This document shows, piece by piece, positions 20,713-57,608 of a stretch of 64,000 bases of DNA (within the stretch, counting starts at the first letter, position 1; the number at the start of each line of letters is the position of its first letter). A program made the translations under genes and the position numbers. Where the stretch lies: positions 659,258 through 723,257 of the forward strand of contig JACKCN010000001.1 in NCBI GenBank assembly GCA_020634015.1. Reading direction: 5' to 3'. The notes under the pieces are model-generated. The model was not told the origin of the DNA. It was given only the letters and a program-made list of their open reading frames with translations, and searched no databases. Source of the stretch: Candidatus Delongbacteria bacterium. GTDB taxonomy: Bacteria > CAIWAD01.

Positions 20713-20725
20713 GGGCCGTGTTTCC

Positions 20726-22909: not shown

Positions 22910-23098
22910 CGGCGGATCCCGCCCGGGACTTCTGTCTCCCAACCATCGTCTGTCTGTCGTGGTTCCGGGCCGATGGCGCCCTTGCCAGTCCAGGATCTTG
23001 TTTTCATGATACTTGCGTCAGATCCGGGTGAGACTCAGTGTCTCTTCCGGCGGGCAGGAGCAAGGAAATCCGGATGAGTGGCCTCTTTTGTTAAAATT

Positions 23099-23203: not shown

Positions 23204-23683
23204 ATGATGAAGACCAAGGCACGCATTCAGCACCTGGTGGAGACATACGGGTCCGGGCGGGAAAACCTGCTCCCCATCCTGCAGCACATCGTGCGGGAGG
23301 ACCATTTCCTTCATAGCCAGGTCCTCGAGGCGCTCGCGCACGAGATGCAGATCTCCGCGGCGGACGTCTACGGGACCGCATCCTTCTACAGTTTCCTCGA
23401 AACGGAACCTCGAGGCAGGCACATCATCCGGGTGTGCAAGACCATCTCCTGCTACATGAAAGGCAAGGATGCCCTGGTGGCCGCCATCGAGGATCGCCTG
23501 AAGATCCGCATGGGCGAGACCACGCGCGACGGCCAGTTCAGCCTGCTGGCCGCCAACTGCATGGGCTGGTGCCACAAGGGGCCGGCGATGCTGATTGACG
23601 AGCAGGTGTACACCGAACTGACCCCAGAAGGCGCGGTGGCCATCATCGAGCAGTTCATGCAGGAGCGGAGGATACGGGCATGA
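23204..23683 (+). CDS. NuoE-like thioredoxin-fold [2Fe-2S] subunit (HydC/HndA-like)
   Basis: CKTISCYMKG ... ANCMGWC cysteine pattern of NuoE/24-kDa subunits. GAGGA RBS. Confidence 0.8.
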   Translation: MMKTKARIQHLVETYGSGRENLLPILQHIVREDHFLHSQVLEALAHEMQISAADVYGTASFYSFLETEPRGRHIIRVCKTISCYMKGKDALVAAIEDRLKIRMGETTRDGQFSLLAANCMGWCHKGPAMLIDEQVYTELTPEGAVAIIEQFMQERRIRA

Positions 23684-24864: not shown

Positions 24865-24873
24865 GACAAGACC

Positions 24874-26643
24874 ATGACCCATCTCACGATGAACAACCTG
24901 CCCATGGACGTCGCAGAGGGCACGTCGATACTGGAAGCCGCCCGCGAGGCGGGAATCCACATTCCCACACTGTGTCACCACAAGGACCTTTGCGTGGCGG
25001 GCAACTGCCGGGTCTGTGTGGTGGAAGTGGAAGGCCAGCGCGCCCTGCAGGCCGCCTGCGCCCTGCCGGCAAGCGAAGGCATGAAGGTCTTCACCAATTC
25101 GGCGCGCGTGCGCTCGGCGCGCCAGATCGTGATCGAACTGCTGCTCTCCGAGCACCGCAGCGACTGCCTGAAATGCTACCGCAACGGAAACTGCGAGCTG
25201 CAGGACCTGGCCTACGAGTACCGGGTGGAAGAGCGCACATTTCTGGATCTGGCGACCCACGCGCACATCGATCGCAGTTCACTCTCGATCATCAAGGACG
25301 ATTCCAAGTGCATCCGCTGCCAGCGCTGCGTGCGCACCTGCGACGAGTTGCAGAAAGTTTCGGCCCTGACCGTGGCCCACAAGGGCAAGCACATGAAGAT
25401 CGAGACATTCTTCGCCAATCCGCTCTACGACGTGGTCTGCAGTACCTGCGGGCAATGCGTCAACCGTTGCCCGACCGGAGCGCTGGTGGAACACACCGTG
25501 GTCGATGATGTCTGGGCGGCCATCGAGAATCCCGAGCTGCACGTGATCGTGCAGACCGCTCCCGCGGTGCGGGTGTCCATTGGCGAGGAACTGGGCTACG
25601 ACCCGGGGTCCCGTGTCACGGGCAAGATGGTCACGGCCCTGCGTCGCCTGGGTTTCGACAAGGTCTTTGACACCGACTTCGCCGCTGACCTGACGATCAT
25701 CGAGGAAGGCAGCGAGCTGCTGCAGCGCCTGAAGAACGTGCTGGTCAACGGGCGCACGGACGTGGCTCTGCCCATGATCACCAGCTGCTCGCCGGGTTGG
25801 GTCAAGTTTCTCGAGCACCTCTTCCCCGACCGCCTGGATCACCTGAGCACCTGCAAGTCGCCGCAGCAGATGTTCGGCGCGCTGGCCAAGACCTGGTACG
25901 CCCGCAGGATGAAGATCGCGCCCGAGAAGATCGTGGTGGTCTCGATCATGCCCTGCACGGCCAAGAAGTACGAGGCCGCGCGGCCCGAGATGCGCGGCGA
26001 GACGGGACTGCCCGACGTGGACTATGTGCTCACCACGCGCGAACTGGGTCGGATGATCCGCCAGGCCGGACTGGACTTCCGCAAACTGGTGCCCGAGGAC
26101 TACGATTCGATGATGGGCCACTCCACCGGAGCCGGCGTGATCTTCGGGTCGACGGGTGGCGTGATGGAAGCGGCCCTGCGCACGGTGCACGAATTGGTCA
26201 CCGGCCGGGAAGTGCCCTTCGAACACCTGGACGTGCTGCCCGTGCGCGGCATGGAAGGTGTGCGCCAGGCGGTGATCCCCCTGCACGACTGCCTGCCCGC
26301 CTGGGAGTTCCTCAACGGTGTGGAACTGAAGGTGGCCGTGGCTCACGGACTGAACAACGCCTGGGAACTGATGCGGACGATCGAAGCGGGCAATTCGGGC
26401 CTGCACTTCGTGGAAGTGATGGCCTGCCCCGGAGGCTGCCTCGGCGGCGGCGGTCAGCCCATTCCCACCGACCTGGAGATCCGCAAGGAACGCATGAAAG
26501 CGATATTCGCCGAGGATTCGGCCATGACCCTGCGCAAGTCGCACAACAATCCTGATGTGATGCGACTCTACGAGGAATTCCTGCACGTGCCCCTGGGAGA
26601 ATCCTCCCACAAGTTGCTGCACACCTCGTATACCAGGCGTTAG
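24874..26643 (+). CDS. [FeFe]-hydrogenase large subunit-like protein (HydA-like) with a variant L1 motif
   Basis: N-terminal [2Fe-2S] plus [4Fe-4S] ferredoxin-like Cys clusters. H-cluster motifs L2 MPCTAKKYE and L3 EVMACPGGCLGGGGQP are present, but L1 reads TSCSPGW instead of TSCCPxW. Confidence 0.8.
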   Translation: MTHLTMNNLPMDVAEGTSILEAAREAGIHIPTLCHHKDLCVAGNCRVCVVEVEGQRALQAACALPASEGMKVFTNSARVRSARQIVIELLLSEHRSDCLKCYRNGNCELQDLAYEYRVEERTFLDLATHAHIDRSSLSIIKDDSKCIRCQRCVRTCDELQKVSALTVAHKGKHMKIETFFANPLYDVVCSTCGQCVNRCPTGALVEHTVVDDVWAAIENPELHVIVQTAPAVRVSIGEELGYDPGSRVTGKMVTALRRLGFDKVFDTDFAADLTIIEEGSELLQRLKNVLVNGRTDVALPMITSCSPGWVKFLEHLFPDRLDHLSTCKSPQQMFGALAKTWYARRMKIAPEKIVVVSIMPCTAKKYEAARPEMRGETGLPDVDYVLTTRELGRMIRQAGLDFRKLVPEDYDSMMGHSTGAGVIFGSTGGVMEAALRTVHELVTGREVPFEHLDVLPVRGMEGVRQAVIPLHDCLPAWEFLNGVELKVAVAHGLNNAWELMRTIEAGNSGLHFVEVMACPGGCLGGGGQPIPTDLEIRKERMKAIFAEDSAMTLRKSHNNPDVMRLYEEFLHVPLGESSHKLLHTSYTRR

Positions 26644-26962: not shown

Positions 26963-29900
26963 TCATTTCAACAGCACCATTTTGCGGCTGAGACTGCGCC
27001 CATCGGCCTGAAGACGATAGATGTACACGCCACTGGCCAGACCATTACCGTCAAAATCCAGTGTGTAGTTGCCCGCCGGCTGTACGCCATCGACGAGGGT
27101 CGCCACCAGGGCCCCGCGCAGATTGAAGACCTGCAGGCGCACCTGGTGCTGGCGCTCGAGTTCATAGGAGAGGCTGGTCACCGGATTGAAAGGATTGGGC
27201 CAGTTGGCCCACAGCGCCAGTTCGGCGGGCAGGCCCGGCTCTTCGTCCAGATCGGTGCTGCCGCGCAGACTCAGGTCGAAGTTCAGCAGGCGCGTGTAGG
27301 CATCGGATTCATCGGCCTGCACCTGGGACTGGCCACTGTGATACCCGGCCAGACTGCAGTACACCACATAGCTGTTCTGGTCGACCAGGCCAGCCAGGCT
27401 GTAGGCCCCCTGGGGACCGCTGAGCGCCCAGCGCACATCCTGCCCATCGGTCGAGACCGCCAGCAGCAGCGCTCCCGCCAGGGGCAGGCCCGCTTCGCTG
27501 CGCACCAAGCCGGTGACCGTGCTGGCCCCTGCGCTGGTGGCCAGACTGCGCACGCTCATGTCCTGGTTCGTCATGTCCGTGCTGCCGCTGTAGGACATGG
27601 CTCCATCCAGGCTCCAGCTGTCTCCCGAGAACACGGGCATGTGTCCCGGGGCGAAGTAGAGCAGGGTCAGGCGATGATCGCCATCGTTGCCCACCCGGTA
27701 GTTGCCCTGCAGATCGGTGGGCACGGTGCACAATGCGCCCGTGTCCGCATCCAGGGCCACCACCAGACCATCGGCGCGCGCCTCGCCGGACTGGTCCAGC
27801 AGCCTGCCGCTGATGCTGTTCTGGGCGTCGGCGGCGGCCGTCAGGTTGAAGTTCAGGTTGCTGATGCTGGCATCGCTGGTGAAGCTGAACTGGGTGGCAT
27901 CGGCGAAGCTTTCGGCGTTGCTGAAGAAATCCATCAGATAGCCTTCGCGCTCGGCGGAGATCGAGAAGGGCACGATCGGCAGGCGGTCCAGAATGATGGT
28001 GGCGCCCCAGTTGCCCTGCGGGTCCGTGTTCACGCGGGCCTCCTCCAGCTCTCCGGCCGGAGTCCAGAACCGCAGGGCCACGCCGGGAATTCCCTGCAGG
28101 TCCGCGTCACTCACACGCCCCGCCAGCTGAATCGTGATCTGGCCACCGTCGACACGCGGAATGCCGAAATTCATGCCGTCACGTACCATCGTGGGTGCCA
28201 GGTCGATCACCGTGGCCGCGTCCAGGCTCTGGGCATCCTCCCAGTACTCGGTGTAATCCACGGGGGCTCCGTTGCCTCCGCTGAGCACATGGCAGCGCAC
28301 GAACCAGGCACCCGCGGGCAGGTCCAGCGACCAGTGTCCCGAGCTGTTGGTGAAGGTGTGGAAGGACAGGGGATCACCGGGTTCGGCGCTGATCGCTTCC
28401 ACCATCGCATACACCGGCAGGCCCGTGTCCTCGGTGCGCACATTGCCCGCCAGCAGGCCCAGCAGCATGCCGTTGTCGAGGGACATCATCTCGATGTTGA
28501 CCCGCAAGGTATCCGGGGCATGGTGACCCATCCCGTGCAGGTTCAGCTCCAGCTGGGCTTCGCTGTACCCGTCGGCATTGGCACTCAGGGTGGCGAAAGG
28601 CGCGTCCACGGCCAGCGGTCCGAAAGCGAAGTGGCCGTCCTCGTCGGACAGCCCCAGCCATTGCTGGTCACCGGCCTGCAACAGCAGCTCGGCGTCTCCA
28701 ATGGGGTCATGGCTGAACATGTCAAGCACCCGGCCCAGAATCACCGGATCGTGCGGCTCGCCGTCGTCACGGGCGTTGAGGAACAGGTCAAGGGAATTGT
28801 CACCCGGCTGCAGCAGAAGCGGCATGAAGAGCGTGTGATACCCCAAGGCCGCGGCCATCAGTTCACTGCTTCCGCCGTGCAGGCCTTCCAGCAGGAAGTG
28901 CCCCAGAGAATCACTTTCAGCCGTCACGGGCTGGCCCATGAATCCGGGAGCCGACAGACAGACGTGCGCCATGGGCATTCCGCTCCCCGCATCGCTGACC
29001 GTGCCCGACAGACTGGCGGCCTGCCCATTGCCTTCGAATGGCTCCATGCTGAAATCCAGCACGTTGTCGCCGGTTTCAAGGAAAAACTCCAGGTCAAAGG
29101 GAAAGTAGCCGGGAGCATCCGCGTGCAGGTCCGTGGGACCCGAGAAGAGCGGGTGTCCGTGGTCCGTCGAGTAGTTGCCGTCCTCGTCGGTCAGCAGGAC
29201 CTGGCCGTGATGCGGTCCGGGCAGGTGGATCAGCGCTCCGGGCACTGGAGCTCCGCTGAGGGCATCGCTGACCCGGCCACTGAGAAACGCATCGTGATCG
29301 CCGCCGTCGTGCAGCCCGATGTGGCGCGTGTTCTCCCCGGCCCCCAGAGTCACGGCCTGCTCCCAGGGCAGAAAACCCTCGGCATGGGCGTGAAGCACCA
29401 CGGTGCCGGTGGGCAGTTCATTGAACTGGTAGTGTCCATTCTCGGTGCTGAAGGTTTCCCGGTGCACGCCCTGATTGGTGTCCAGTTCGATGCGCGCACC
29501 GGCCACCACTGTGTCACTGCCGTCAATGAACACGGTGCCGCCGAGTGTGGCCAGCTCTCCTCCACCGCCCAGCGGAACCATTTCCAGATCCAGCACGAGC
29601 TGCTGGGATGGCTCCAGATCCACCAGCATCTCCAGACTGTGGAACCCTTCCCGCTCGACCCGGAAGTGGCAGATCCCGGGCAGCAGGTTCTCGGCAAGAT
29701 AGACGCCATTGCCACTGCTGAGGACCACGGGGTGATCGGGCTGCAACAGGAAGTGGAACGCGGCCCCCTGCACGGGCTGGTCATTGTTGGCATTGCGCAC
29801 GATGCCGGAGAGACGGGCGAGGTCGCCACCGCCCGGATTCTCGAGCAGCAGGTTGCGCGTGTTCAGCCCCTGCCCGGGTGTGAATTCCACACTGCGCGCC

Positions 29901-30673
29901 AGGTACCCGGGAAAGAATGCGTTGAGATGGCACACGACACCGGCGAGGATTCCGTTGAACTCGTAGTGTCCGTCAGGGCCGCAGACCGTGTTCCGGGGCG
30001 GAAACTCGCCCTGATGCAGGGTCAGCTGCGCTCCCGGCAGGACCAGCGAATCGGGGGCGCCGCTGACCATGCCGACCAGGCGGGCGGCCGGAGTGTCGTT
30101 GCGCACCAGCACGAAATCATACTCCGTATCCTGGGGGCCAACGGTCACGGCGGGATTCTCGTGTGTCTGGTACAGAGGATGATAGGCGTGGAATGACCCG
30201 ACCCCGACAAAGGCCGGGTACGACCAGTACCCCGCCTCATCGGTGAACACCAGCATGTCCGTGGGCCCATCGGGACCCACGACCCGCACATTGGCCACAC
30301 CCTGGCCTTCTCCGTTGGTGGCACGCCCGTGCAGTTCGACCACCTCGGGGAAGGTGTTCTGGGGGTCCATGCCGATGGTGACGCTGTTCTCACCCGGCTG
30401 CAGATCCATCAGCAATTCGGCTGGATGATAGCCTTCGCGTGTGACGCTCAGGAACAGCGGTCCGCTCTCGAGACCTTCCAGCACGAACTGGCCAGCCCCA
30501 TTGCTGAAGACCGGTGGGTATGCGGGCTGGGTATCCACGCGTGCATTGTGCAGCGGCTGGCCGCTCAGGATGTCGAAGACCTGGCCCTGAAGACGGGCGG
30601 AAAAGGCGGGCAGGCCAAGCGCCAGAGTCAGCAGGAGTGCCAGCAGGCGGGTGTGGAATGGTCTAGCGGTCAT
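26963..30673 (-). CDS. Giant T9SS cargo protein with multiple carboxypeptidase-regulatory-like (CarbopepD_reg) beta-sandwich repeats and a type-A Por C-terminal sorting domain
   Basis: Signal peptide MTARPFHTRLLALLLTLALGLPAFSA. About 10 repeats of the type GxVxDxxSGxPxxGAxV. C-terminus ...NYTLDFDGNGLASGVYIYRLQADGRSLSRKMVLLK. Confidence 0.75.
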   Translation of the reverse strand: MTARPFHTRLLALLLTLALGLPAFSARLQGQVFDILSGQPLHNARVDTQPAYPPVFSNGAGQFVLEGLESGPLFLSVTREGYHPAELLMDLQPGENSVTIGMDPQNTFPEVVELHGRATNGEGQGVANVRVVGPDGPTDMLVFTDEAGYWSYPAFVGVGSFHAYHPLYQTHENPAVTVGPQDTEYDFVLVRNDTPAARLVGMVSGAPDSLVLPGAQLTLHQGEFPPRNTVCGPDGHYEFNGILAGVVCHLNAFFPGYLARSVEFTPGQGLNTRNLLLENPGGGDLARLSGIVRNANNDQPVQGAAFHFLLQPDHPVVLSSGNGVYLAENLLPGICHFRVEREGFHSLEMLVDLEPSQQLVLDLEMVPLGGGGELATLGGTVFIDGSDTVVAGARIELDTNQGVHRETFSTENGHYQFNELPTGTVVLHAHAEGFLPWEQAVTLGAGENTRHIGLHDGGDHDAFLSGRVSDALSGAPVPGALIHLPGPHHGQVLLTDEDGNYSTDHGHPLFSGPTDLHADAPGYFPFDLEFFLETGDNVLDFSMEPFEGNGQAASLSGTVSDAGSGMPMAHVCLSAPGFMGQPVTAESDSLGHFLLEGLHGGSSELMAAALGYHTLFMPLLLQPGDNSLDLFLNARDDGEPHDPVILGRVLDMFSHDPIGDAELLLQAGDQQWLGLSDEDGHFAFGPLAVDAPFATLSANADGYSEAQLELNLHGMGHHAPDTLRVNIEMMSLDNGMLLGLLAGNVRTEDTGLPVYAMVEAISAEPGDPLSFHTFTNSSGHWSLDLPAGAWFVRCHVLSGGNGAPVDYTEYWEDAQSLDAATVIDLAPTMVRDGMNFGIPRVDGGQITIQLAGRVSDADLQGIPGVALRFWTPAGELEEARVNTDPQGNWGATIILDRLPIVPFSISAEREGYLMDFFSNAESFADATQFSFTSDASISNLNFNLTAAADAQNSISGRLLDQSGEARADGLVVALDADTGALCTVPTDLQGNYRVGNDGDHRLTLLYFAPGHMPVFSGDSWSLDGAMSYSGSTDMTNQDMSVRSLATSAGASTVTGLVRSEAGLPLAGALLLAVSTDGQDVRWALSGPQGAYSLAGLVDQNSYVVYCSLAGYHSGQSQVQADESDAYTRLLNFDLSLRGSTDLDEEPGLPAELALWANWPNPFNPVTSLSYELERQHQVRLQVFNLRGALVATLVDGVQPAGNYTLDFDGNGLASGVYIYRLQADGRSLSRKMVLLK

Positions 30674-32276
30674 GGGTTGCAATCCTTTCGGGGATGCGTG
30701 TGTCCTTGTTGCGCACCGCACGGCTGATCAGGGCGGAGAGGTGAGGATAACTGAGCCCCAGCCTGTCACTCATCAGCTTGCGGTTGTGCTCGTAGCGCTG
30801 GAAGAGCCAGGCCAGGATCGTATCGTCGAATTTCTGGTTGATGTCCTTCCAGTCCAGATCGGGGTGCAGCCGGACGAATCGTGTCACGGATGCGGGAGTG
30901 GCCGGGGACCCCATCTGGCGGTGGCGCTGGCGCACGTTGCTGAGGGTTCGATGCGCGATTCCCAGTTGCTGCACGGCCTGCTTCTGTGTGCCATGTTCCT
31001 GCACGCGCAGCTCCAGCAGGGCATTCTGGAAGATCGTGCGGATTTCCTTGAGGCTGTGTGCCAGAGCGAATGCGAACTCCGCATCGTCCAGAGCCGCGCC
31101 CTCATCTGTCGACGTTCCGGGATGGCTCGCGCTGAAACGCACGTGGCTCTCGATGGCTTCCAGTCGGGTGGGAGTGGCCGGATATCCGGCCCTCAGCAGT
31201 TCCATCGTGCTGAGATAGGCTCTGGAATGGAACTGCCGGGACGGCTCGAGCTGATTCAGGCTCTCGTGACACTGGGCCAGATACAGGCAGAGCGCGGGTA
31301 CGATGATCAGCGTGCCCTGCTCCAGGGCGATGTTCAGCCCTTCGGTGAACAATTCGATCGCCTCGGCGTGACATCCTTCCTGCTTGAGGCAGCGTCCCAT
31401 CAGATCCAGGCTGTCGATGCGCGAGTAGGGGAACTCGGCCAGAGAGAGCGCGTGTGCCAGCTCCTGCATGCCCTGGTCGCGCTTGCCCTGCTGGATGTGT
31501 AGCATGCCCAGATCATTCAGCATCAGGGCCCGACAGAACTGCAGCTCAGGTCCGGCGGCCAGCTCCAGTCCGCGCAGGCACCAGGCCTCCGCGTCTTCGG
31601 GCCGCGAATCCACCAGGGCCAGCTGGGCCAGCATGCGGAAGTGCGCCACCGCGGTGGCCTTCTGACCATGCTGCATGAACCACTGAGCCGAGAGTTCCAG
31701 CTGGGCGGCCACGGACTCGCCACGAGCGGCCTGCAGCGCCAACCTGTAGTAATGATGCTGGCGCCGGAGAAACTCGGACCGGGCCAGACGCTGGATGTTG
31801 TCCAGCATCGAGCCAGCAGCGTCGGAATTGCCGATCAGCATCAGGAAACGCGCCATCTCCAGTTGCACGAAGGCCCGCTGCTCGGCATCGGTCGCGGGAG
31901 TCAGGAGGCTCCAGGCCTGGCCCAGCAACTGCCCGCCTTCGCGCAGCCGCATCTGGCTGTTCAGTCCGCGCGCCAGTCCGGCAAGCAGCACCGCCTTGTG
32001 CGAAGGGTCGCGTTCCAGTTGCAGGAGGGTGCGAAAGGCCTGACAGGTATCGGGAATGGTCTTTCCGCAGAACATGGAAAGGTGGCCGACCGCATCCAGC
32101 CACTTGGAATCGGGTTGAACTCCGTCCAGTGGGCCCAGCTCTGAGGTCGGGGACGGCCCCATGCGGAAGACTGCCGGCAGAAACGCGGTATGGGGAGCTG
32201 TGTTCATGGCGCGAAACCTGCCATCTGCTGACCGGGTTTGCCAGAAATTTTTCCATCTGGTCGCATTTTTTTCCAA
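30663..32276 (-). CDS. TPR-like regulator with two C-terminal Fis-type HTH motifs
   Basis: Helical TPR-like body. QKQAVQQLGIAHRTLSN and KLMSDRLGLSYPHLSALI HTH_8-like segments. Start could be 32207. Confidence 0.5.
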   Translation of the reverse strand: MEKNATRWKNFWQTRSADGRFRAMNTAPHTAFLPAVFRMGPSPTSELGPLDGVQPDSKWLDAVGHLSMFCGKTIPDTCQAFRTLLQLERDPSHKAVLLAGLARGLNSQMRLREGGQLLGQAWSLLTPATDAEQRAFVQLEMARFLMLIGNSDAAGSMLDNIQRLARSEFLRRQHHYYRLALQAARGESVAAQLELSAQWFMQHGQKATAVAHFRMLAQLALVDSRPEDAEAWCLRGLELAAGPELQFCRALMLNDLGMLHIQQGKRDQGMQELAHALSLAEFPYSRIDSLDLMGRCLKQEGCHAEAIELFTEGLNIALEQGTLIIVPALCLYLAQCHESLNQLEPSRQFHSRAYLSTMELLRAGYPATPTRLEAIESHVRFSASHPGTSTDEGAALDDAEFAFALAHSLKEIRTIFQNALLELRVQEHGTQKQAVQQLGIAHRTLSNVRQRHRQMGSPATPASVTRFVRLHPDLDWKDINQKFDDTILAWLFQRYEHNRKLMSDRLGLSYPHLSALISRAVRNKDTRIPERIATHDR

Positions 32277-41407: not shown

Positions 41408-41436
41408 TTGACTTCTACTGTATGGGGCCATACAAT
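41408..41436 (+). promoter_or_regulatory. Sigma-70-like promoter TTGACT-N17-TACAAT for the giant repeat gene
   Basis: TTGACTtctactgtatggggccaTACAAT in the AT-richer intergenic region, about 100 nt upstream of ATG 41538. Confidence 0.5.
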
Positions 41437-41537
41437 GCGCCACAGTGCACCAGCGGCCCCTCCCCCCCGGACTGCCGGTTCTGATCGCTTGCAACACACT
41501 GAACTTGAATTCAATCCGAACCACCGGGAGGTAAACC

Positions 41538-44500
41538 ATGTTTGCCCGTTGGACTCCGCTCACTCTCCTGTCCATGCTCGGTGCGGGACTGCTGATCGCC
41601 TCAGCGCCGTCCCTGCACGCCGCAGGAAAGACGCCCCTCTTCGATTACCAGACCAAATCCACCGTCCAGCGCTTCAACCAGCAGCTGATCAACGTGGAGA
41701 ACGGCAAGTCTGCCGCCGAGGAGGGCAATGCGGTCACCAAGCCAGCCGGGCATGCCACGGCCGGAGACATCACGAATCCGCAGATGGATCCCGCCTGCCA
41801 GACCAACCCACAGTTCGACCCGGCCTGTCAGACCAATCCCGCGACCGATCCGGACTGCGTGACCAATCCGGTCACGGACCCGGCCTGTCGCACGAATCCG
41901 CAGTTCGATCCGACCTGCGTGCCCACCGACCCGGCCGTGGACCCCAATTGCATGACCAATCCGGATTTCGACCCGGCCTGCGTGCCCACCAATCCTCAGA
42001 TCGACCCGACCTGCCAGACCAATCCCGACTACGATCCGGTCTGCGGTCCTACCAATCCGGCCTTCGACCCGACCTGTCAGACCAATCCCGACTGGGATCC
42101 CGATTGCCAACCGACCAATCCCTCCTGGGACCCGATGTGCAACACTAATCCCCAGTACGATCCGACCTGCACCACCGACCCGTCGGTGAATCCTGAGTGT
42201 TACCAGACCAATCCGCAGTATCACTCGGCCTGTCAGACCCAGCCCCAGTGGGACCCCGCCTGCGGCTTCACCGATCCGGCCATGGATCCGAACTGCTTCA
42301 CCAATTCGGCATACATGCCCGAGTGCAGCACCAACCCGCAGTTCGACCCTTACTGCGAGACGAATCCCCAGTACATGGCGGGCTGCGACACCAATCCGAT
42401 CTACAACCCGGATTGCTACACCAACACGTTCTTCGATCCCAGCTGTCTGACTCAGCCAGCCTACGACCCGCACTGCTTCACGAATCCGGTGGACGGAACC
42501 AGCTGCGTGTCTAACCCGCTCTATGATCCGAGTTGCGAGACCAACCCGGTGTATGGCTTCTGCCAGACCAACCCCGACTTCGAACCGGGCTGTGAGACAA
42601 ACCCACTGTACCAGTCTTCCTGCGTGACCAGCACCTACTTTGACCCGTTCTGCCATACCAACCCACAGTATGCGCCGTCCTGTGCCACCAACCCTGAATT
42701 TGACGCGACCTGCAGCACCAACCCGCTGTATTCGCCCAATTGCCTGACGAACCCCGACCTGGATCCGCTCTGCGAGACCAACCCGGCCTGGGGCATTCCG
42801 TGCAGCACCAATCCCCAGTACACGCCCAATTGCGTGACCAACCCGCTGTACCAGAGCGCGTGCGAGACCAACCCGAATTATGTCGAGCATTGCGACACCA
42901 ATCCGGTGTACACACCCAACTGCGAGACCAACCCGATCTGGAGCGAGGCCTGCACCACCAACCCGGACTGGGACTTCTGCCACACCAATCCGCAGTATGG
43001 CCCGACCTGCCAGACCAATCCGCAGTACTTCCCCGAGTGCCAGACCAACCCGGCCTGGTCCAGTGCCTGCTCCACCAATCCGCAGCACGATCCGCATTGC
43101 GAAACCAATCCGGAGTATCAGGCCAACTGCCAGACAAACCCGCTGTTCAATCCGCTGTGCAGCACCGACCCCAGCTTCGATCCGGGCTGCCATACCGATC
43201 CGGATTTCGATCCGGCCTGCTACACCAATATGTGGTACGGTGGGTTCTGCGAGACCAATCCGATCTATGACACTCCCTGTGAGACCAACCCGGCCTGGGG
43301 CTTCTGCACCACAAACCCGACGGTCGAGCCGAATTGCCAGACCAATCCGCAGTACAGCCTGAACTGCAGCACCGATCCGTATTTCGACCCGTCCTGCTAC
43401 ACCAATCCGGCCAGCAGTCCCTTCTGCGTTACAAACCCGGACTACATGGCGGACTGCAACACCAACCCAGTGTACCAGGCAAGCTGCAGCACCAATCCGG
43501 ATTTCGACCCCGATTGCCAGACCAATCCGAGCTGGGGCGGCGACTGCAGCACCAATCCGCAGTACGATCCGGCCTGCCTGACCAATGCGCTGTACGATCC
43601 GGCCTGCCATACCAATCCGTTCTTCGACAGCCACTGCGAGACCAACCCGCAGTACTTCGAGAACTGCAGCACCAACCCGATCTATCAGTCGGGCTGCGAC
43701 ACCAATCCGGACTACGGATTCTGCATCACCAACCCGAACCATTTCCCGGGCTGCCACACCAATCCGCAGTACTATCTGGATTGCAACACCAACCCGAACT
43801 GGGTCTCGACCTGCATGACCAGTCCGCAATTCGACCCGACCTGTCAGGTGACCAATCCGGATCTGTATGCCAACTGCCACACCAACCCGGACTACAGCCC
43901 ACTGTGCCAGATGACCAATCCGGAATACTCCCCGGAATGCCAGACCGATCCGTCCTGGGATCCCACCTGTCTGGACACCAATCCGGTGTTCTCACCGAAT
44001 TGCTACACCAACCCGGTGCATGATCCGACCTGCCTGACACATCCGCAGTTCCAGCCGGAGTGCGAGACCAACCCGCAGTTCCTGCCCGGTTGCGACACCA
44101 ACCCGATCTACAACCCGGATTGCTGGTCGAATCCCTTCTTTGACCCGACCTGTTCGACCAATCCGAACTACGACCCGACCTGCTTCACCAACCCGGTGGA
44201 TGGCACGAGTTGCGTCTCCAACCCGCTCTACAATCCGCAGTGCGATACCAATCCGTCCTGGGGATTCTGCCAGACCGATCCGCAGTACGAGCCCGATTGC
44301 AATACGGATCCGCTCTTCAACCCGACCTGCGTGACCAATCCGTACTTCGATCCTTCGTGCCACACGAATCCGGCCTACACTCCGGATTGCGAGACCAATC
44401 CGCAATACCAGCCGGGATGCGATACCAATCCGCTGTACAACCCGGCCTGCCAGACGCACCCGGACTTCGACCAGCAGTGCCAGACCAATCCGGCCTATGG

Positions 44501-45986
44501 CGTGATCTGCGATACCAATCCGCAGTACAGTCCGAATTGCGAGACCAATCCGTTCTACGCGGCGGATTGCGCCACCAACCCGCAGTTCGACACCTTCTGC
44601 GAGACGAATCCGCAGTACACCCCGAACTGCTCGACCAACCCGCTCTTCGATTACAGCTGCGAGACCAATCCGGCCTGGGACTTCTGCGTGACCAACACCC
44701 TGTTCGACCCGTCCTGCGACACGAACCCGCAGTACTTCGATCATTGCAACACCAACCCGGTGCACGATCCGCAGTGCCACACCAACCCGCAGTTCGACCA
44801 CCACTGCCAGACCAATCCTGAGTTTGGTCCGGACTGCACGACCAATCCGCTGTGGCAGGTGAGTTGCGAGACCAGTCCCTTCTACGATCCGGGTTGCGTG
44901 ACCCAGCCGGCCTACGACCCGCATTGCTTCACCAACCCCGTGGACGGTACGGTCTGCGACACCAACCCGATCTACCAGCCCGGTTGCGAAACCAATCCGG
45001 CCTATGGGTTCTGCACCACCAACCCGGAATTCGAACCCGGTTGCGAGAGCAATCCGCAGTACAGCCCGTTCTGCACGACCAACCCGAGTCACGATCCGGA
45101 TTGCACGTCAAACCCGGCCTACAGCCCGTTCTGCGACACCAACCCGGCCTACAACCCGGATTGCAGCACCAACCCGATCTACGATCCGGCGGCCTGCCTG
45201 ACGCACCCGGTCTACGATCCGCAGTGCCAGACCAATCCCGACTGGGGTGTGATCTGCACCACGAATCCGACCTACGACCCGGCCTGCATGACCAATACGC
45301 AGTTCGATCCGGCCTGCATGACCAATCCATACCTGGATCCGCATTGCAGCACGAACCCGTCGATTCACCCGGGCTGCAGCACCAATCCGATCTTCAACCA
45401 GAATTGTCAGACCAACCCGGTGCATGGCTTCTGCCTGACCAATCCCTTCTGGCACGGTGGCTGCAACACGAACCCGGCGTTCTATCCGTGGTGCTCGACC
45501 GATCCCACCTGGGATCCGGCCTGCGTCACCAATCCTGCGCTCGATCCGGGCTGCGCCTTCACCGATCCGGCGTTCAATCCCTTCTGCGCGACCAACCCGA
45601 TGTGGGACAACAGCTGCGTGACCCGGCCCCAGTACGACCCGGGCTGCCAGACCAACCCGCATTGGCAGTTGAACTGCTGCATCTCGGTCAGCGAGCTCGA
45701 GATTCAGCTGGTGAACCTTGATCCGGTGATCCAGATCCACTGGAACGATGTGCCGTACGCCACGTCCTATCGGGTCGAGGGACGCCGCGCCACCGGACGC
45801 TGGATCGTGATCGGCGAAACCACCGAGACCTTCATGGACTTCACGCCTCCGCTGACCACGGCCGACGCGGTGTTCAGCTTCCGCGTGATCACCATCTGCC
45901 CGGACCCGCCGATCGAGTCCGATGAAGGCCACCCCGGCCCCCTGGACACACCGGTGCTCCAGCCCGGATATGGTTTCACCCGCTAG
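41538..45986 (+). CDS. Giant secreted Cys-decapeptide tandem-repeat protein (about 130 units C-x-T-N-P-x-[YFW]-[DN]-P-x) with a C-terminal FN3/Ig-like domain
   Basis: Uninterrupted 4449-nt ORF. RBS GGGAGG 7 nt before the ATG. Signal peptide MFARWTPLTLLSMLGAGLLIASAPSLHAAG. 30-nt periodicity across about 3.9 kb with exactly one Cys per unit. C-terminal about 100 aa (IHWNDVPYATSYRVEGRRATGRWIVIGE...) is FN3-like. Terminator follows. Confidence 0.8.
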   Translation: MFARWTPLTLLSMLGAGLLIASAPSLHAAGKTPLFDYQTKSTVQRFNQQLINVENGKSAAEEGNAVTKPAGHATAGDITNPQMDPACQTNPQFDPACQTNPATDPDCVTNPVTDPACRTNPQFDPTCVPTDPAVDPNCMTNPDFDPACVPTNPQIDPTCQTNPDYDPVCGPTNPAFDPTCQTNPDWDPDCQPTNPSWDPMCNTNPQYDPTCTTDPSVNPECYQTNPQYHSACQTQPQWDPACGFTDPAMDPNCFTNSAYMPECSTNPQFDPYCETNPQYMAGCDTNPIYNPDCYTNTFFDPSCLTQPAYDPHCFTNPVDGTSCVSNPLYDPSCETNPVYGFCQTNPDFEPGCETNPLYQSSCVTSTYFDPFCHTNPQYAPSCATNPEFDATCSTNPLYSPNCLTNPDLDPLCETNPAWGIPCSTNPQYTPNCVTNPLYQSACETNPNYVEHCDTNPVYTPNCETNPIWSEACTTNPDWDFCHTNPQYGPTCQTNPQYFPECQTNPAWSSACSTNPQHDPHCETNPEYQANCQTNPLFNPLCSTDPSFDPGCHTDPDFDPACYTNMWYGGFCETNPIYDTPCETNPAWGFCTTNPTVEPNCQTNPQYSLNCSTDPYFDPSCYTNPASSPFCVTNPDYMADCNTNPVYQASCSTNPDFDPDCQTNPSWGGDCSTNPQYDPACLTNALYDPACHTNPFFDSHCETNPQYFENCSTNPIYQSGCDTNPDYGFCITNPNHFPGCHTNPQYYLDCNTNPNWVSTCMTSPQFDPTCQVTNPDLYANCHTNPDYSPLCQMTNPEYSPECQTDPSWDPTCLDTNPVFSPNCYTNPVHDPTCLTHPQFQPECETNPQFLPGCDTNPIYNPDCWSNPFFDPTCSTNPNYDPTCFTNPVDGTSCVSNPLYNPQCDTNPSWGFCQTDPQYEPDCNTDPLFNPTCVTNPYFDPSCHTNPAYTPDCETNPQYQPGCDTNPLYNPACQTHPDFDQQCQTNPAYGVICDTNPQYSPNCETNPFYAADCATNPQFDTFCETNPQYTPNCSTNPLFDYSCETNPAWDFCVTNTLFDPSCDTNPQYFDHCNTNPVHDPQCHTNPQFDHHCQTNPEFGPDCTTNPLWQVSCETSPFYDPGCVTQPAYDPHCFTNPVDGTVCDTNPIYQPGCETNPAYGFCTTNPEFEPGCESNPQYSPFCTTNPSHDPDCTSNPAYSPFCDTNPAYNPDCSTNPIYDPAACLTHPVYDPQCQTNPDWGVICTTNPTYDPACMTNTQFDPACMTNPYLDPHCSTNPSIHPGCSTNPIFNQNCQTNPVHGFCLTNPFWHGGCNTNPAFYPWCSTDPTWDPACVTNPALDPGCAFTDPAFNPFCATNPMWDNSCVTRPQYDPGCQTNPHWQLNCCISVSELEIQLVNLDPVIQIHWNDVPYATSYRVEGRRATGRWIVIGETTETFMDFTPPLTTADAVFSFRVITICPDPPIESDEGHPGPLDTPVLQPGYGFTR

Positions 45987-46012
45987 TCCACACCACAGCC
46001 CACTCAACAGGA

Positions 46013-46045
46013 ACCCCGCCGCGAGGCGGGGTTCTTTCTTTCTTC
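46013..46045 (+). terminator. Rho-independent terminator of the giant repeat gene
   Basis: AACCCCGCC-gcga-GGCGGGGTT followed by CTTTCTTTCTT. Confidence 0.7.
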
Positions 46046-46092
46046 CCTGGATGATCAGGCGGGAGTATTGAAAGTCAGGTGGCAATGCGGGT

Positions 46093-46778
46093 GGCGTCGT
46101 GCCTGCTGCAAGGCCAGCAACCGCCGCTGGCGTCACGCCTGCTGCAAGGCCAGCAACCGCCGCTGGCATCACGCCTGCTGCAAGGCCAGCACCCTCCGCT
46201 GGCATCATGCCTGCTGCAAGGCCAGCAACCGCCGCTGGCAGGACGCCTGCTGCAAGGCCAGCATCCTCCGCTGGCAAAACGCCTGCTGCAAGGCCAGCAT
46301 CCTCCGCTGGCGCCATGCCTGCTGCAAGGCCAGCATCCTCCGCTGGCACGACGCCTGCTGCAAGGCCAGCAACCTCCGCTGGCATCATGCCTGCTGCAAG
46401 GCCAGCATCCTCCGCTGGCAAAACGCCTGCTGCAAGGCCAGCAACCTCCGCTGGCAGGACGCCTGCTGCAAGGCCAGCACCCTCCGCTGGCAAGACGCCT
46501 GCTGCAAGGCCAGCAACCGCCGCTGGCAGGACGCCTGCTGCAAGGCCAGCACCCTCCGCTGGCAAGACGCCTGCTGCAAGGCCAGCAACCGCCGCTGGCG
46601 TCATGCCTGCTGCAAGGCCAGCAACCTCCGCTGGCAGGACGCCTGCTGCAAGGCCAGCAACCTCCGCTGGCAGGACGCCTGCTGCAAGGCCAGCATCCTC
46701 CGCTGGCATCACGCCTGCTGCAAGGCCAGCATCCTCCGCTGGCACAACGCCTGCTGCAAGGCCAGCAACCTCATATCA
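46093..46778. repeat. Near-perfect 33-bp tandem repeat array (about 21 copies), possibly encoding a Pro/Ala/Thr-rich low-complexity peptide
   Basis: Unit cctgctgcaaggccagcaNNcNccgctggcNNNaNg repeated head-to-tail with variation confined to two short patches. All six frames are open across it. The + frame from GTG 46099 reads (PAARPA[TSP][AS]AGxT)n to 46815. Confidence 0.8.
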
Positions 46779-55500: not shown

Positions 55501-55518
55501 GTGCTGCTGCTCAAGTGA
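52513..55518 (+). CDS. M1 family zinc aminopeptidase with C-terminal T9SS (Por) sorting domain
   Basis: HELMHQWFGD ... WLNEGWATY (HExxH-x18-E). Signal peptide. C-terminus WPNPFNPETRVSFTL ... GVYLLRLDG ... KVLLLK. AAGGAGAA RBS. Confidence 0.8.
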   Translation: MLLSSTLLSLMMGTALPATHVQAAPEPAAPATAAHLPLIETGAPSREMIEFFRQQEKPWRRLPHSHGGSGLRDSRTLSQYDVSYYELELDMPTASAGMTGVVRMHFRSLEPDLASIELHAGDNLGLDQVLVNGQAASFSHTGDDFTVTLPQPLGEGESAVLETHYTVTYGGGGVLPATRTNVQTSQSVATLTTQAEPWDARRFWPCRDEPIDKADSLLAHITTQDYNTVVSNGVLRSNLVNGDGTRTVTWFEGLPMSTYLFSVCIAPYNHRSDTWSWNETSMPMEEWSWGLSPSEQQFVSQTGMDALTAFSDLFGLYPFHEQKYGHAQYTWGGAMEHQSVSSMGFYNQAVIAHELMHQWFGDKLTCESFHHIWLNEGWATYGEALFFESIGGSQTLHDYMDFEEYYGGGTIYVENPESENIFDGNLSYAKGAWVLHMLRHVMGDEGFFTAVRAYLGGSDPSAYRTVDTAEFQSFMEAEYGESLDWFFTQWIHGEYWPDYVWNWQTRSEGPQLWLDMGVVQRQLPERQLFTMPLDLVVYYPNQPDTLVRLFNDQPSQNWSIALAEQPDSVRLDPQNWVLSNVTRASDLDSDPRLVEVRIVDGEGAVMEALPDTDAFGLELDLQNFGGPLTGLSAELQSTDSRIALTPQQLTPGALELGQTITLEFDAASLSRLEGRVAFSLELAWPDHALSLPFSLPGSHPSLILVDDDTEGNWEQLFLAAAGDEVVQLLSPAEFLSQTPDTQALLIWHQGNAGRMLSPDERSALESFVELSGHVVLSGQDLLQSQDPVWAQQFLGLEVIQSSVSSSAVSGEITSIFPGQLLFFINGGAGNQTHMDRLDPLNAFPVFHYFNSVESGDAGVVHESDISGGRVLSLGFGLEGISGAGTSMDLGEVLERLIAWSRGEVGLNEPGHALPRSPVLDSAWPNPFNPETRVSFTLPREGNVELMVYNLAGQLVDTLHRGRLAAGTHQVLWRAEGRSSGVYLLRLDGPGGGDTMKVLLLK

Positions 55519-57608
55519 GACACCTGCTTGCCCTGCTGGGACTGGCTGGCTGCGTGCTGGCCCAGGTTCCCGAACTGCTCGACAGCCGTCCCGGTGCCGA
55601 CTGTTTCCGGCTGGCTCCCTGGCCCGCGGGGGGTCTGATCGCCGGAGGAGATGGCGTGTTGCAACTCGTCTCGCCAACGCCTGAACTGGCCCCCGTGATG
55701 GGCGAGTGGCTCAGCCCGGGCACTCTGTCCGATCTGGCCGGCGATGGCGAGCATCTGCTGCAGGCGCTCGGTGGTGCGGGCCTGCTGGTCTGGGACGCCA
55801 GCACGGGCCTGAGCGAGCCCTGGACCCTGGCGGTTCCGGCCACCAAGGTCTGCGTGGATCAGGATTGGGCGACAAGCGCCGCCGGTTCCCAGCTGAGCCT
55901 GATCCAACTGAACGGAGCCGCTCCCGAAGTCGTGCACACGGCCAGCCTGCCCTCGGCCTGTGCCGCACTTGCCCAGCGCGATACTCTGCTTTATGCCTTC
56001 GACGACAGCCAGCTCCATCTGTACCACATCGATGCCACTGGCTTCGCGCTGCGCACCAGCCAGACTCTTTCTGCGCCCGTGCTGAAAGCCCGTGTGTCCG
56101 CCGACGAATTGCTGCTGGTGCACATGGATGGAGTCGTGGAACGGATTTCCCTCAATGCCCAGGGTCGGCCGACAGGGTCCGAAAATTGGTCCAGCATGCT
56201 GGCCCCCAACGACATTCTGGCCCTTGGCTCACAGCGTTACCTGCTGAGCGTGCCCGGAACGGGACTGCTGCCGCTGTTCTGGCCTGCGGGCGAAGCCGCG
56301 CAGCCGGGCACTCCCCGCCGGTTCGCCGACTGGAACGGCCAGCTCTGCGCTCTGGGCAATGGGCGCATCGCGGTGGCCGAAGGCGAAGCCGGTGGCGCGC
56401 TGTATCTCACGGACTCCGAGGGCGTGCCCCAGGCGCTGGGCCGCTTCTCAACCCGACCTCTCGCACGCAAACTGCTGCTCGACGATCAACTGCCCCATCA
56501 CGTCTGGCTGCTTGACGGAAGGCTCGGTCTGCGCCGTTTCCACAGCGAGCTTCTCACCGAGCGCATGCAGCTGGCCTTCCCTCGGCCCGTGATCGGTGGA
56601 GACCTGCGCGAGGGCTGGGCCGGGGCCGTCACCGAGGGCTCGGGACTGCGTTTCTATCAGGTCTTCGCCGACAGCTCGGCGATCAACGGCATCCACAGCA
56701 CCGACCCGATCGTGGACCTGGCGATGGGCCCGGAGCTGATGCTGGCCTACATCACGTCCAATGGTTTCGTGGCCATCAAGCAGATCAATCCCTTTCCCTA
56801 CACGCTGTTCCACTACGGCACGATCTTCCTCAACTGCCTGCCGGGAGCCGCCTTCTGGGTGGGCGACCAGTTCTTCCTTGGCAGTCAGGACGGACGCCTG
56901 TTCCACGTGGATGTCAGTGACCCGCAGGCTCCCACGCTGGTGGAAACCCTGCAACTGGCCGGCCCCGTGCGCGACGCCGACCCCTATCCGCCCGCCGCGC
57001 TGGACCGCATGCTGGTGAGCGCGGGCGACCTCTACCGCCTGGCCTTCCAGGGAGCGGGTCCCGTGATGATCGAAGACAGCTACCACCACGCCTGGGGCCC
57101 CGTGGCCTGCGCCTCGGTGGGCGAGCTGGTCTGCTTCGCCACCGGCAACACGCCCGTGATCGGTGCCTTTCCCGGCACGCGCGGCAATCCCTTCGGCCCC
57201 CTGCTCTCGCCGGAGACCTCACCCGCGCCCGCCATGGCCGACCTGCTGGACATGGGCGGGCTGGAGGTGCTGGGACTGACGGAAGCCGGCGATCTCAATC
57301 GTTACACCTTCGCGCAGTTGGACACGCCTGCGCCAGTCGCGTTGCCCTCGAGTCTCGGCCTGCGTGCCTTTCCCAATCCGGCGAATCCGGGCACGGTGCT
57401 GCAGTTTGAGCTGCGCACTCCTGCGCGTGTGACGGTGACCCTGGTGGACATGGCGGGGCGTGTGTGCCTCAGCCAGGCAATGGGCGAATTGGGCAGCGGG
57501 CAGCAGCGGGTGGCCCTGGATCTGGCGGGATTGGCCAGTGGGGTGTATCTGTGTCGGGTGAGCGCGGGCGCGGAATGGGAGAGTGTGCGGCTGAGTCTGG
57601 TGAAGTGA
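55515..57608 (+). CDS. Hypothetical secreted protein with C-terminal T9SS sorting domain
   Basis: GTG start overlaps the M1 peptidase stop (GTGA). Signal peptide. C-terminus AFPNPANPGTVLQFEL ... GVYLCRVSAGAEWESVRLSLVK. Confidence 0.6.
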   Translation: MRHLLALLGLAGCVLAQVPELLDSRPGADCFRLAPWPAGGLIAGGDGVLQLVSPTPELAPVMGEWLSPGTLSDLAGDGEHLLQALGGAGLLVWDASTGLSEPWTLAVPATKVCVDQDWATSAAGSQLSLIQLNGAAPEVVHTASLPSACAALAQRDTLLYAFDDSQLHLYHIDATGFALRTSQTLSAPVLKARVSADELLLVHMDGVVERISLNAQGRPTGSENWSSMLAPNDILALGSQRYLLSVPGTGLLPLFWPAGEAAQPGTPRRFADWNGQLCALGNGRIAVAEGEAGGALYLTDSEGVPQALGRFSTRPLARKLLLDDQLPHHVWLLDGRLGLRRFHSELLTERMQLAFPRPVIGGDLREGWAGAVTEGSGLRFYQVFADSSAINGIHSTDPIVDLAMGPELMLAYITSNGFVAIKQINPFPYTLFHYGTIFLNCLPGAAFWVGDQFFLGSQDGRLFHVDVSDPQAPTLVETLQLAGPVRDADPYPPAALDRMLVSAGDLYRLAFQGAGPVMIEDSYHHAWGPVACASVGELVCFATGNTPVIGAFPGTRGNPFGPLLSPETSPAPAMADLLDMGGLEVLGLTEAGDLNRYTFAQLDTPAPVALPSSLGLRAFPNPANPGTVLQFELRTPARVTVTLVDMAGRVCLSQAMGELGSGQQRVALDLAGLASGVYLCRVSAGAEWESVRLSLVK

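Follow-up and report, generated by a model that had tools for sequence, protein, structure and literature searches.

Thrombospondin type 3 repeats are short, Asp/Asn- and Pro-containing units with little regular secondary structure, in which regularly spaced cysteines serve as staples. In the account of Kvansakul et al. 2004 (PMC381422), as relayed in PMC4034032, these repeats form a calcium-binding 'wire'. The high-sulfur keratin-associated proteins possess Cys-rich penta- and decapeptide repeats, and are thought to be cross-linked by disulfides into a tough matrix (PMC2116416, PMC4929423). The gene described here, which encodes a protein built largely of decapeptides with one cysteine each, is located at positions 41538-45986 (+ strand) of a 64,000-nucleotide stretch from a Candidatus Delongbacteria bacterium (GenBank assembly GCA_020634015.1, contig JACKCN010000001.1, positions 659,258 to 723,257), referred to below as the window. 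Its likeness to both described systems is one of functional analogy only. Short Asp/Asn/Pro repeats with regular cysteines are shared with the thrombospondin type 3 repeats, whereas the window protein lacks the DxDxDG motif, has one Cys per ten residues and carries an invariant T-N-P; indeed, Pfam gave no TSP_3 match at E<=1, and the protein contains 0 D.D.DG motifs. The keratin-associated proteins are likewise made of short Cys- and Pro-rich tandem repeats, but they have several Cys per unit, are intracellular and eukaryotic, and show no sequence kinship to the window protein.

Searches for the repeat protein in NCBIfam, the PDB (repeat profile against solved structures), PADLOC and PHROGs gave no match, and literature searches by motif, by Delongbacteria and by accession number found no description of it. 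The Cys-decapeptide family is undescribed, and no known repeat family fits it. This bears out an earlier note, made from the letters of the window alone, whose author recognised no described repeat family; the one Pfam match that the protein does produce, to Extensin_1, is an artefact and is dealt with below. The remaining parts are of known kinds, namely a Sec signal, a β-sandwich, GIFT-domain membrane proteins next to the gene and, in paralogues, C-terminal sorting domains (CTDs).

The open reading frame (ORF) is translated without interruption into 1,482 amino acids (aa). The protein has 132 cysteines, 130 of which fall within a single array (residues 87-1380), where the distance from one Cys to the next is 10 aa in 110 cases, 11 aa in 11 and 9 aa in eight. 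The array unit has the consensus C-x-T-N-P-x-[YFW]-D-P-x. Among the 110 ten-residue units, conservation reaches 100% at C1, 95% at T3, 84% at N4 (a further 7% have Asp) and 94% at P5, while position 7 is Y/F/W in 85%, position 8 is Asp in 44% (D/N 52%) and position 9 is Pro in 67%; positions 2, 6 and 10 are variable. With seven of ten positions constrained, the unit is expected to have a defined local conformation rather than to be a loose linker. The predicted mature protein (161 kDa) is very acidic, with a pI of ~4.05 and 165 Asp+Glu against 13 Lys+Arg. In the protein, NPx[YFW] occurs 83 times and [ND]P 172 times, and a motif scan found no CxxC, CxxCH or other recognised metal motif in it.

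The periodicity is visible in DNA and protein alike. DNA self-identity of the ORF at a lag of 30 is 0.527, compared with 0.31 in a control gene, and a degenerate DNA pattern for three C-x-T-N-P units matches 36 times in the window, always within this ORF, and 0 times in shuffled sequence (a two-unit pattern with TWY-GAY-CC codons, giving only five matches, was too strict and was set aside). Individual units are only ~53% identical in DNA, and Tandem Repeats Finder (TRF) reports nothing but fragments of the array, at 60-85% match. Protein self-identity is 0.393 at lag 10 and 0.336 at lag 20, and rises to 0.407 at lag 569 aa, which points to an internal duplication of ~57 units. In agreement with this, the distances between successive 9-residue 'xGF' units are 14, 11, 14 and 18 units, a series seen again 57 units further on; an FTNPVDGT block is present in three copies. 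An alternation of long and short units (21-22 aa per pair) is local, being seen in the N-terminal part of the array and in short family members, and a unit-length parity test found no fixed two-unit register in the array, since the long-short register shifts. Most of what the earlier note had read from this ORF is therefore upheld: some 130 one-Cys decapeptides, occasional 9- or 11-residue units, blocks recurring three times, a 30-nucleotide period and units degenerate in DNA. Its consensus stands for Cys, Thr-Asn-Pro and the aromatic residue at position 7, whereas Asp/Asn at position 8 and Pro at position 9 are weaker than had been stated.

The repeat ORF is a genuine gene under purifying selection. 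Its GC content at third codon positions (GC3) is 0.817, within the range of the neighbouring genes (0.78-0.82), compared with 0.48 for the long antisense ORF. A scan of one genome per GTDB species with the three-unit DNA pattern yielded two proteins of the same architecture, one of 1,590 aa in L004 ('MAG: bacterium 8_bin.8'; MAG, metagenome-assembled genome) and one of 960 aa in L002 (a MAG labelled 'uncultured Bacteroidaceae'). Three further orthologues were reached through neighbouring genes: L059 (bin Delongbacteria_CAIWAD01; 1,334 aa, 119 Cys), L061 (959 aa) and L063 (1,410 aa, 127 Cys). The L063 locus is 77-79% identical to the window in nucleotides, and synteny is shared through to the TetR and DUF5671 genes.

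The window protein is colinear with that of L004 unit for unit, at 64% identity, a synonymous divergence (dS) of ~1.0 and a ratio of non-synonymous to synonymous divergence (dN/dS) of 0.29, with indels restricted to the N-terminal part of the array. Identity to the L002 protein is 50% (dN/dS 0.27) and to that of L063 72%. The odd 9-residue units are found at matching positions in the orthologues. Between orthologues, C1 is conserved at 100%, T3 at 97-98%, P5 at 94-98% and N4 at 83-87%; positions 2, 6 and 10, at 29-59% identity, are the only ones that vary freely. Colinear orthologues are thus present in five independent assemblies, at dN/dS values of ~0.27-0.29, and the adjoining membrane protein W_892 has a 100% identical copy in an independent ENA assembly. 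Together, GC3, colinearity and dN/dS leave in practice no room for an artefact of assembly or a satellite that is non-coding. The array is not hypervariable but stable, and the suggestion that selection acts on the protein has held up.

A search of 5.8 billion proteins with the whole protein returned only five weak matches, all from a separate family with a 20-aa repeat. We also carried out an exhaustive hidden Markov model (HMM) search with a 10-unit profile against 1.84 billion representative proteins, which gave 299 matches, mostly unrelated eukaryotic or simple repeats with a ten-residue period; among the best 150 of the 299, 12 are clear family members. All 12 have a signal peptide followed directly by a motif of ~25 residues, [ST]PL[YF]x[YW]QTxSTxxRFxxxL[IV][DN]V, and then 4-26 units of C-x(1-3)-T-[ND]-P-x-[FWY]-x-P-x; with the long members included, the family spans 4-139 units. 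In every member the signal peptide shows an n-region and a hydrophobic core, with an AxA-like site two to four residues ahead of the conserved motif of the mature protein, as the earlier reading of a Sec signal peptide in the window protein would have it. The N-terminal motif has no Pfam match; the equivalent segment of one short member, P0012, is predicted as a helix by AlphaFold2 (AF2), at low confidence.

The members differ at their C-termini. Eleven of the 12 are 230-550 aa long and end in a CTD of the kind used by the T9SS (type IX secretion system). Among the four scanned with Pfam, P0007, P0010 and P0012 match Por_Secre_tail at 30-35 bits (gathering threshold 27) and P0014 falls just below. 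Where NCBI has named members of these clusters, the name is 'T9SS type A sorting domain-containing protein', and the named taxa are Calditrichota, Candidatus Delongbacteria or 'bacterium'. The one remaining member, P0075 (237 aa, with five array Cys), ends as the window protein does, in a 'CC' pair, a β-sandwich of ~75 residues, a conserved Cys that follows the last β-strand of the sandwich, and a Pro-rich tail. In an alignment of this domain across five homologues, the CC pair is conserved and so is the Cys that follows the last strand. Two alternative C-terminal modules are therefore present in the family: a T9SS type A CTD in the short members, and 'CC' plus an FN3-like sandwich in the window type. 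Array Cys counts in the window type are 130, 123, 139, 115, 76, 76 and 5, and short members have 6-25 Cys, some of these numbers being odd. Both kinds may occur together, since one MAG (GCA_964345075.1) holds the long CC-sandwich member L002 and the short CTD member P0158, and sample SRR26424594 contains both L063 and P0157.

A family-profile search of the 5.8-billion-protein index found seven proteins. Among 241 million metagenome records scanned for three consecutive regular units there was no further giant member; the 44 loci obtained were all simple satellites of the CFTNP, CHTNP or CWTDP type. The repeat DNA pattern had 0 matches in viral contigs. The family is small and rare, and apparently found in uncultured bacteria of the Candidatus Delongiibacteriota/Calditrichota kind. 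The Delongbacteria labels among the relatives are one locus's bin name and one member of a short-paralogue cluster (NCBI, phylum Candidatus Delongiibacteriota).

Two other kinds of repeat were encountered in these searches. The first is a 15-nucleotide satellite that reads C/P-F-T-N-P, mostly has LHVLQIH-type repeats on its flanks and recurs in many MAG and metagenome contigs of low GC content, 0.35-0.41 (L003, L008, L009, L019, L024, L029, L031, L038, L042 and L057); it is unrelated to the family, yet matches the same degenerate DNA pattern. The second is another undescribed family (P0001-P0005 and P0018) of secreted proteins of 830-1,160 aa that have no Pfam matches, possess conserved N- and C-terminal domains of their own and are built on a 20-residue repeat, C-S-x-[ND]-P-L-Y-[DN]-x-x-C-P-G-Y-x-x-A-Y-x-x-Q-Q. 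The half-motif C-x2-[ND]-P-x-[YF]-[DN]-x2-C is shared with the Cys-decapeptides, whereas the period of 20, the Cys-free second half and the terminal domains are different. This family supplied all the matches of the whole-protein search, the E-values are weak (1e-6 to 1e-10), and the likeness may be convergent.

The second conserved element is a pair of membrane-protein genes, W_892 and W_939, transcribed divergently from the repeat gene. W_892 has ~8 N-terminal transmembrane (TM) helices and, after them, two large soluble domains of the DUF4350/ABC_transp_aux (GldG-like, GIFT) kind with a TM hairpin between them; its tail is Pro-rich. W_939 has the same build, and its gene is translationally coupled to that of W_892 through an ATGA overlap. 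Both pass Pfam thresholds, W_892 for DUF4350 and W_939 for ABC_transp_aux, and the W_892 family profile matches the IFT52 GIFT domain (5fmr) in the PDB (E 1.7e-4), which places them near the GldG/ABC_transp_aux/DUF4350/IFT52 proteins; unlike GldG-type proteins, however, they have an N-terminal domain of 8-10 TM segments and two GIFT-like domains. A published prediction (PMC5898192) makes DUF4350/GldG-like domains the extracytoplasmic portions of complexes for secretion or membrane remodelling. PADLOC and PHROGs gave no match for either protein.

Ten W_892 homologues were found in the indexed database, including the identical copy mentioned above, and at every locus examined the next gene on that strand is a homologue of W_939. 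A CC-sandwich Cys-repeat gene is divergently adjacent to the W_892 homologue in the window and in L004, L002, L059, L061, L063 and L014; in L014, the locus of the five-unit mini-member P0075, the upstream fragment is the N-terminus of a W_892-family protein (hmmsearch E 6e-25). At one more W_892-type locus the divergent gene encodes 1,485 aa without Pfam matches, and may also be a Cys-repeat gene, while two of the W_892-homologue loci are uninformative on the upstream gene. At the loci of short CTD-type paralogues that were examined, there was no W_892/W_939-type or other conserved neighbour. With seven sequence-verified loci on the one side and none on the other, the CC-sandwich type of C-terminus is found together with the GldG-like pair. 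As far as literature searches showed, such a coupling between a GldG-like pair and a Cys-repeat gene has not been described previously. The pair had been presented earlier as two giant paralogous membrane proteins; the divergent arrangement is real and is conserved in at least seven loci, but the proteins are 889 and ~834 aa long, and their paralogy is distant (24% identity over 115 aa, E 6e-7), with DUF4350/ABC_transp_aux matches in common.

One gene near a short member had seemed a possible partner, namely that of a TMEM260/DUF2723-like putative glycosyltransferase directly upstream of a short T9SS-type member (L011 7230-9596 (+)). It was considered as a Thr-modifying partner and rejected, as neither L013 nor the P0012 contig has it conserved.

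Table 1. Features of the repeat gene and of the window around it (window coordinates).
Feature	Position	Strand	Basis
Polyphosphate kinase (PPK1) and Ppx/GppA phosphatase, adjacent	19783-22942	-	window ORF scan
Por_Secre_tail protein with nine CarboxypepD_reg domains	26966-30721	-	28.1 bits vs gathering score 27
Partner 2, W_939, ~834 aa	35866..38370	-	Pfam ABC_transp_aux, 38.2 bits vs gathering threshold 34.7
Partner 1, W_892, 889 aa	38367..41036	-	Pfam DUF4350, 52 bits vs gathering threshold 30.4
Sigma-70-like promoter candidate, TTGACT-17-TACAAT	41408..41436	+	10/12 matches; ~1.6 such sites expected by chance in the region
Shine-Dalgarno-like GGGAGG	41526..41531	+	sequence; 6 nucleotides 5' of ATG
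Predicted Sec-type signal peptide, residues 1-28 (MFARW...SLHA|AG), no lipobox	41538..41621	+	inferred from sequence
Conserved N-terminal family motif TPLFDYQTKSTVQRFNQQLINVENG, residues 32-56	41631..41705	+	aligned in all 14 members compared
Array of ~130 Cys-decapeptide units, C-x-T-N-P-x-[YFW]-D-P-x, residues 78-1380	41769..45677	+	spacing, periodicity, orthologue alignment
'CC' junction, FN3-like β-sandwich (~75 aa) and Pro-rich tail, residues 1380-1482	45675..45983	+	AF2, Foldseek, alignment
Intrinsic-terminator-like hairpin, 12-bp stem (46009-46036) with 8 GC pairs, then T-rich run	46009..46046	+	sequence
M1 peptidase with Por_Secre_tail match below gathering score	52375-55515	+	20.3 bits vs 27
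697-aa Por_Secre_tail protein	55515-57605	+	27.6 bits vs 27

The expression signals of the repeat gene (Table 1) agree in part with what had been claimed for them. A Shine-Dalgarno-like site and a terminator-like hairpin are present; a sigma-70-like promoter candidate is also present, but the number of such sites lies within chance expectation, so that as a promoter it is suggestive only.

AF2 was run on residues 1189-1482 with an alignment built from internal blocks. The repeats in this segment are predicted as coil without secondary structure, at a predicted local distance difference test (pLDDT) score of ~26, while the C-terminal domain forms six strands at pLDDT 54-79. The best PDB matches of this domain in Foldseek are FN3 domains (5j7k, probability 1.0, template-modelling score 0.51, rmsd 3.6 Å, E 0.03). 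Profile searches of the C-terminus gave no Pfam fn3 match, Tissue_fac at E 0.16 and, for the L002 orthologue, GH85_C at 27.4 bits. The domain thus appears FN3-like by a similarity that is weak but consistent, and the FN3/Ig-like domain of the earlier note is retained as a predicted β-sandwich. For the short member P0012, with seven homologues aligned, the repeats reach pLDDT 30-40 and the T9SS CTD more than 90.

We tentatively favor a reading in which the protein is a Cys-stapled, turn-rich envelope fibre docked to the GldG-like membrane pair, a possibility that we hold to be real but well short of secure. NPxY-type and Asx-Pro motifs favor tight turns. Each unit would contribute two Asx-Pro turns, its T-N-P-x-Y segment forming an NPxY-type reverse turn, and the array would be a turn-rich rod or 'wire', neither globular nor a β-solenoid. 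The invariant cysteines would staple the rod through disulfides between adjacent units or between molecules, and cations bound by Asp/Asn would possibly contribute to the stapling. The product would be a long envelope fibre or tether, of the order of 100 nm or more, with the number of units setting its length. The C-terminal β-sandwich would dock this fibre onto the extracytoplasmic GldG-like domains of both membrane proteins; the pair would hold or assemble the fibre, and the sandwich would substitute for the T9SS sorting domain of the short paralogues. Conserved end modules around an array of 5, 76, 115, 123, 130 or 139 units suggest the anatomy of a stalk or tether. Furthermore, in the 20-residue two-Cys family two cysteines stand ten residues apart around [ND]-P-x-Y-[DN], for which a Cys-closed loop is the simplest reading.

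Several observations weigh against such a docked and stapled fibre. The window type has neither a T9SS CTD nor a lipobox, and no known outer-membrane route is evident from its sequence, so the repeat protein may be periplasmic. The window also carries, at 23204-26640 (+), three HydABC-type [FeFe]-hydrogenase genes, as in trimeric electron-bifurcating enzymes, for subunits with thioredoxin-like 2Fe-2S, Nuo51-like and Fe-only hydrogenase large-subunit domains; they point to an organism that is probably anaerobic and fermentative and, together with the PPK1 and Ppx genes and the Por_Secre_tail proteins of Table 1, fit an uncultured anaerobe with a T9SS. Oxidative protein folding is often missing in anaerobes, and the disulfide part of the model is weakened accordingly. 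L004, L059, L063, P0075, P0014 and P0053 have odd numbers of array cysteines, which means that not all of these can pair within one chain. A Cys-parity test across the relatives found no conserved even count and no consistent disulfide register, and the alternation of unit lengths keeps no fixed two-unit register. The AF2 confidence of the repeats is low both in the window block and in P0012, with no confident fold. As to the membrane pair, hydropathy and charge analysis gave no decision on the topology of W_892 and W_939, and at one W_892/W_939 locus (L060) the upstream gene is unrelated.

Several of these same observations suit a thiolate polymer, the main rival, which we consider somewhat unlikely. 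Here the ~130 cysteines would be reduced and, with Asp/Asn, would bind metals, metalloids or (poly)sulfide in an anoxic habitat; the protein would act as an extracytoplasmic sink, store or mineral-attachment surface, with a capacity that scales with the number of units. One strictly invariant Cys per unit, the extreme acidity, the hydrogenase genes of a probable anaerobe, a Cys parity that is not conserved and a unit number ranging from 5 to 139 would all be accommodated, and the failure of AF2 would be expected of a ligand-dependent fold. However, the protein is devoid of CxxC, CxxCH and other metal motifs, and the conserved neighbours are GldG-like, not genes of metal resistance, sulfur metabolism or transport. 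Thiolate binding alone would also leave the strict T3, P5 and aromatic position 7 unexplained.

A related view, to which we give a little less weight still, holds that the array is a previously unknown extracytoplasmic polymer, a ligand-dependent thiolate/carboxylate 'wire' that would either bind metals or (poly)sulfide or be cross-linked reversibly according to redox state, and whose sorting and anchoring would fall to a dedicated C-terminal sandwich, recognised by the GldG-like complex of two proteins, and not to the T9SS. If true, it would constitute a new envelope apparatus of candidate-phylum anaerobes.

It is somewhat less probable again that the protein resembles its short paralogues in being an ordinary T9SS-dependent surface adhesin or fibril, the β-sandwich serving for sorting in a non-canonical way and the GldG-like pair acting in a gliding or T9SS context. 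The genome appears to use the T9SS, given at least three window proteins with CTD or CTD-like matches (28.1 and 27.6 bits, threshold 27, and 20.3 bits). Short members end in type A CTDs (P0007, P0010 and P0012, more weakly P0014), T9SS CTDs are likewise small C-terminal β-sandwiches, and GldG itself is a gliding-associated protein. The window protein and its orthologues differ from this cargo in carrying 'CC', the FN3-like sandwich and the Pro-rich tail. For type A, neither the whole protein nor residues 1380-1482 matched Por_Secre_tail or TIGR04183; the type-B CTD, a check that the earlier note had proposed, proved negative as well, with no match to CHU_C (PF13585) in Pfam (E<=1) or to TIGR04131 in NCBIfam (E<=0.1). 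Indeed, there was no Por_Secre_tail, CHU_C or NCBIfam match, sorting-domain models included, at E<=1. Moreover, the sandwich is not at the extreme C-terminus, being followed by a Pro-rich tail of 25-35 residues, and P0010 and P0007 hold an FN3-like domain plus a true CTD, which argues that the two modules are not equivalent. As to a GldAFG-type ABC transporter system, there was no ABC-2 permease or ATPase gene among the ORFs scanned in the window (~19.8-57.6 kb), and such genes were seen, ~8 kb off, only in L059, L060 and L062.

A disulfide-ladder β-solenoid, in which pairs of units form coils cross-braced in the manner of the insect antifreeze β-helices, is very unlikely. The regular spacing of Cys, Thr and aromatic residues and the local long-short alternation would speak for it, and a solenoid had been suggested on first reading, but the repeats are predicted as coil without strands, and two Pro and two Asx-Pro motifs in every ten residues disfavor strands. 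Self-identity is lower at lag 20 than at lag 10, the long-short register shifts, and Cys parity is not conserved.

Membership of the plant-type extensins and proline-rich cell-wall proteins has very little to commend it. The sole Pfam match of the repeat protein is to Extensin_1 (PF02095), at 164.1 bits and hence above the gathering threshold of 105, and the decapeptide periodicity of Pro and Tyr is indeed shared with extensins. The score nevertheless rests on periodic proline: it remains at 119.9 bits when all Cys are changed to Ala, and no match is left when all Pro are. It also tracks array length, with 163.7 bits in L004 and, below threshold, 88.3 in L059 and 48.6 in L002, and short members have no match. 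We conclude that the score is a sum of weak proline periodicity, an artefact and not a sign of membership. The protein contains 0 SPPP and 0 PP.[YH]K motifs; neither the Cys nor the T-N-P positions occur in extensins, and the present gene comes from a bacterium. Finally, the notion that there is no real gene, only repeats collapsed or joined into a chimera during assembly, or an ORF present by accident in a non-coding satellite, can be set aside, since the difficulty of assembling repeats and the absence of the exact protein from a collection of 15 billion proteins are outweighed by units only ~53% identical in DNA (which makes assembly collapse unlikely), codon-position GC as in real genes, five independent assemblies with colinear orthologues under constraint and a W_892 neighbour found identical in another assembly. 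Cross-linking of Cys with Thr or Asp in the manner of lanthipeptides or ranthipeptides was also considered and rejected: the protein is large and, by its signal peptide, Sec-exported, and no maturase family was seen among the scanned or listed neighbours.

If the docked-fibre reading is true, the protein would represent a new envelope building block, a ten-residue, one-Cys unit stacked from 5 to ~140 times, and would be a first concrete partner for one branch, that of W_892 and W_939, of the GldG/DUF4350 (GIFT-domain) membrane proteins, which are poorly understood. The unit is invisible to current structure prediction and has no description in Pfam, NCBIfam or the PDB. The occurrence of a CTD or a 'CC'-β-sandwich on the same passenger is a natural experiment on routing and anchoring in little-studied candidate phyla related to the Fibrobacteres-Chlorobi-Bacteroidetes (FCB) group. 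In addition, ~130 regular thiols and ~165 carboxylates may be of interest for metal and sulfur binding and for protein materials.

In relatives of higher GC content, a set of genes recurs a few kb after the W_892/W_939 pair, encoded on the other strand (L059 12024-17228, L060 10059-15856, L062 5575-10896). The set encodes one protein of 640 aa and one of 126-129 aa, an ABC-2 permease and, if the locus extends to it, a ~174-aa protein, with an ABC ATPase in addition in L059 and a NosD-like β-helix protein in L060 and L062; it was not found among the scanned window ORFs. The unrelated upstream gene of L060 (2-2566 (+)) encodes a β-helix repeat protein of >854 aa that ends in an FN3-like segment; assignment of this segment to the CC-sandwich family was not significant (E 0.14) and was rejected.

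Downstream of the repeat gene there is a tandem DNA array (46101-46772 (+)), which had been described as a perfect 33-bp array and a possible part of the surface system. Its period is in fact 36 bp, with 18.7 copies at 91% match, and it is imperfect. None of the related loci has a counterpart, nor do the flanks downstream in L004, L002 and L061, so the array is not part of a conserved system, and Rfam and tRNA scans of the window, this array included, gave nothing. It is located between the terminator of the repeat gene and an RDD-family gene. Its coding status is ambiguous, as one frame gives LLQGQ[QH]PPLAxR, its variation being mostly synonymous, and another gives ACCKASxxRWxx with gene-like GC3. 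The variation among its copies is concentrated at two sub-sites.

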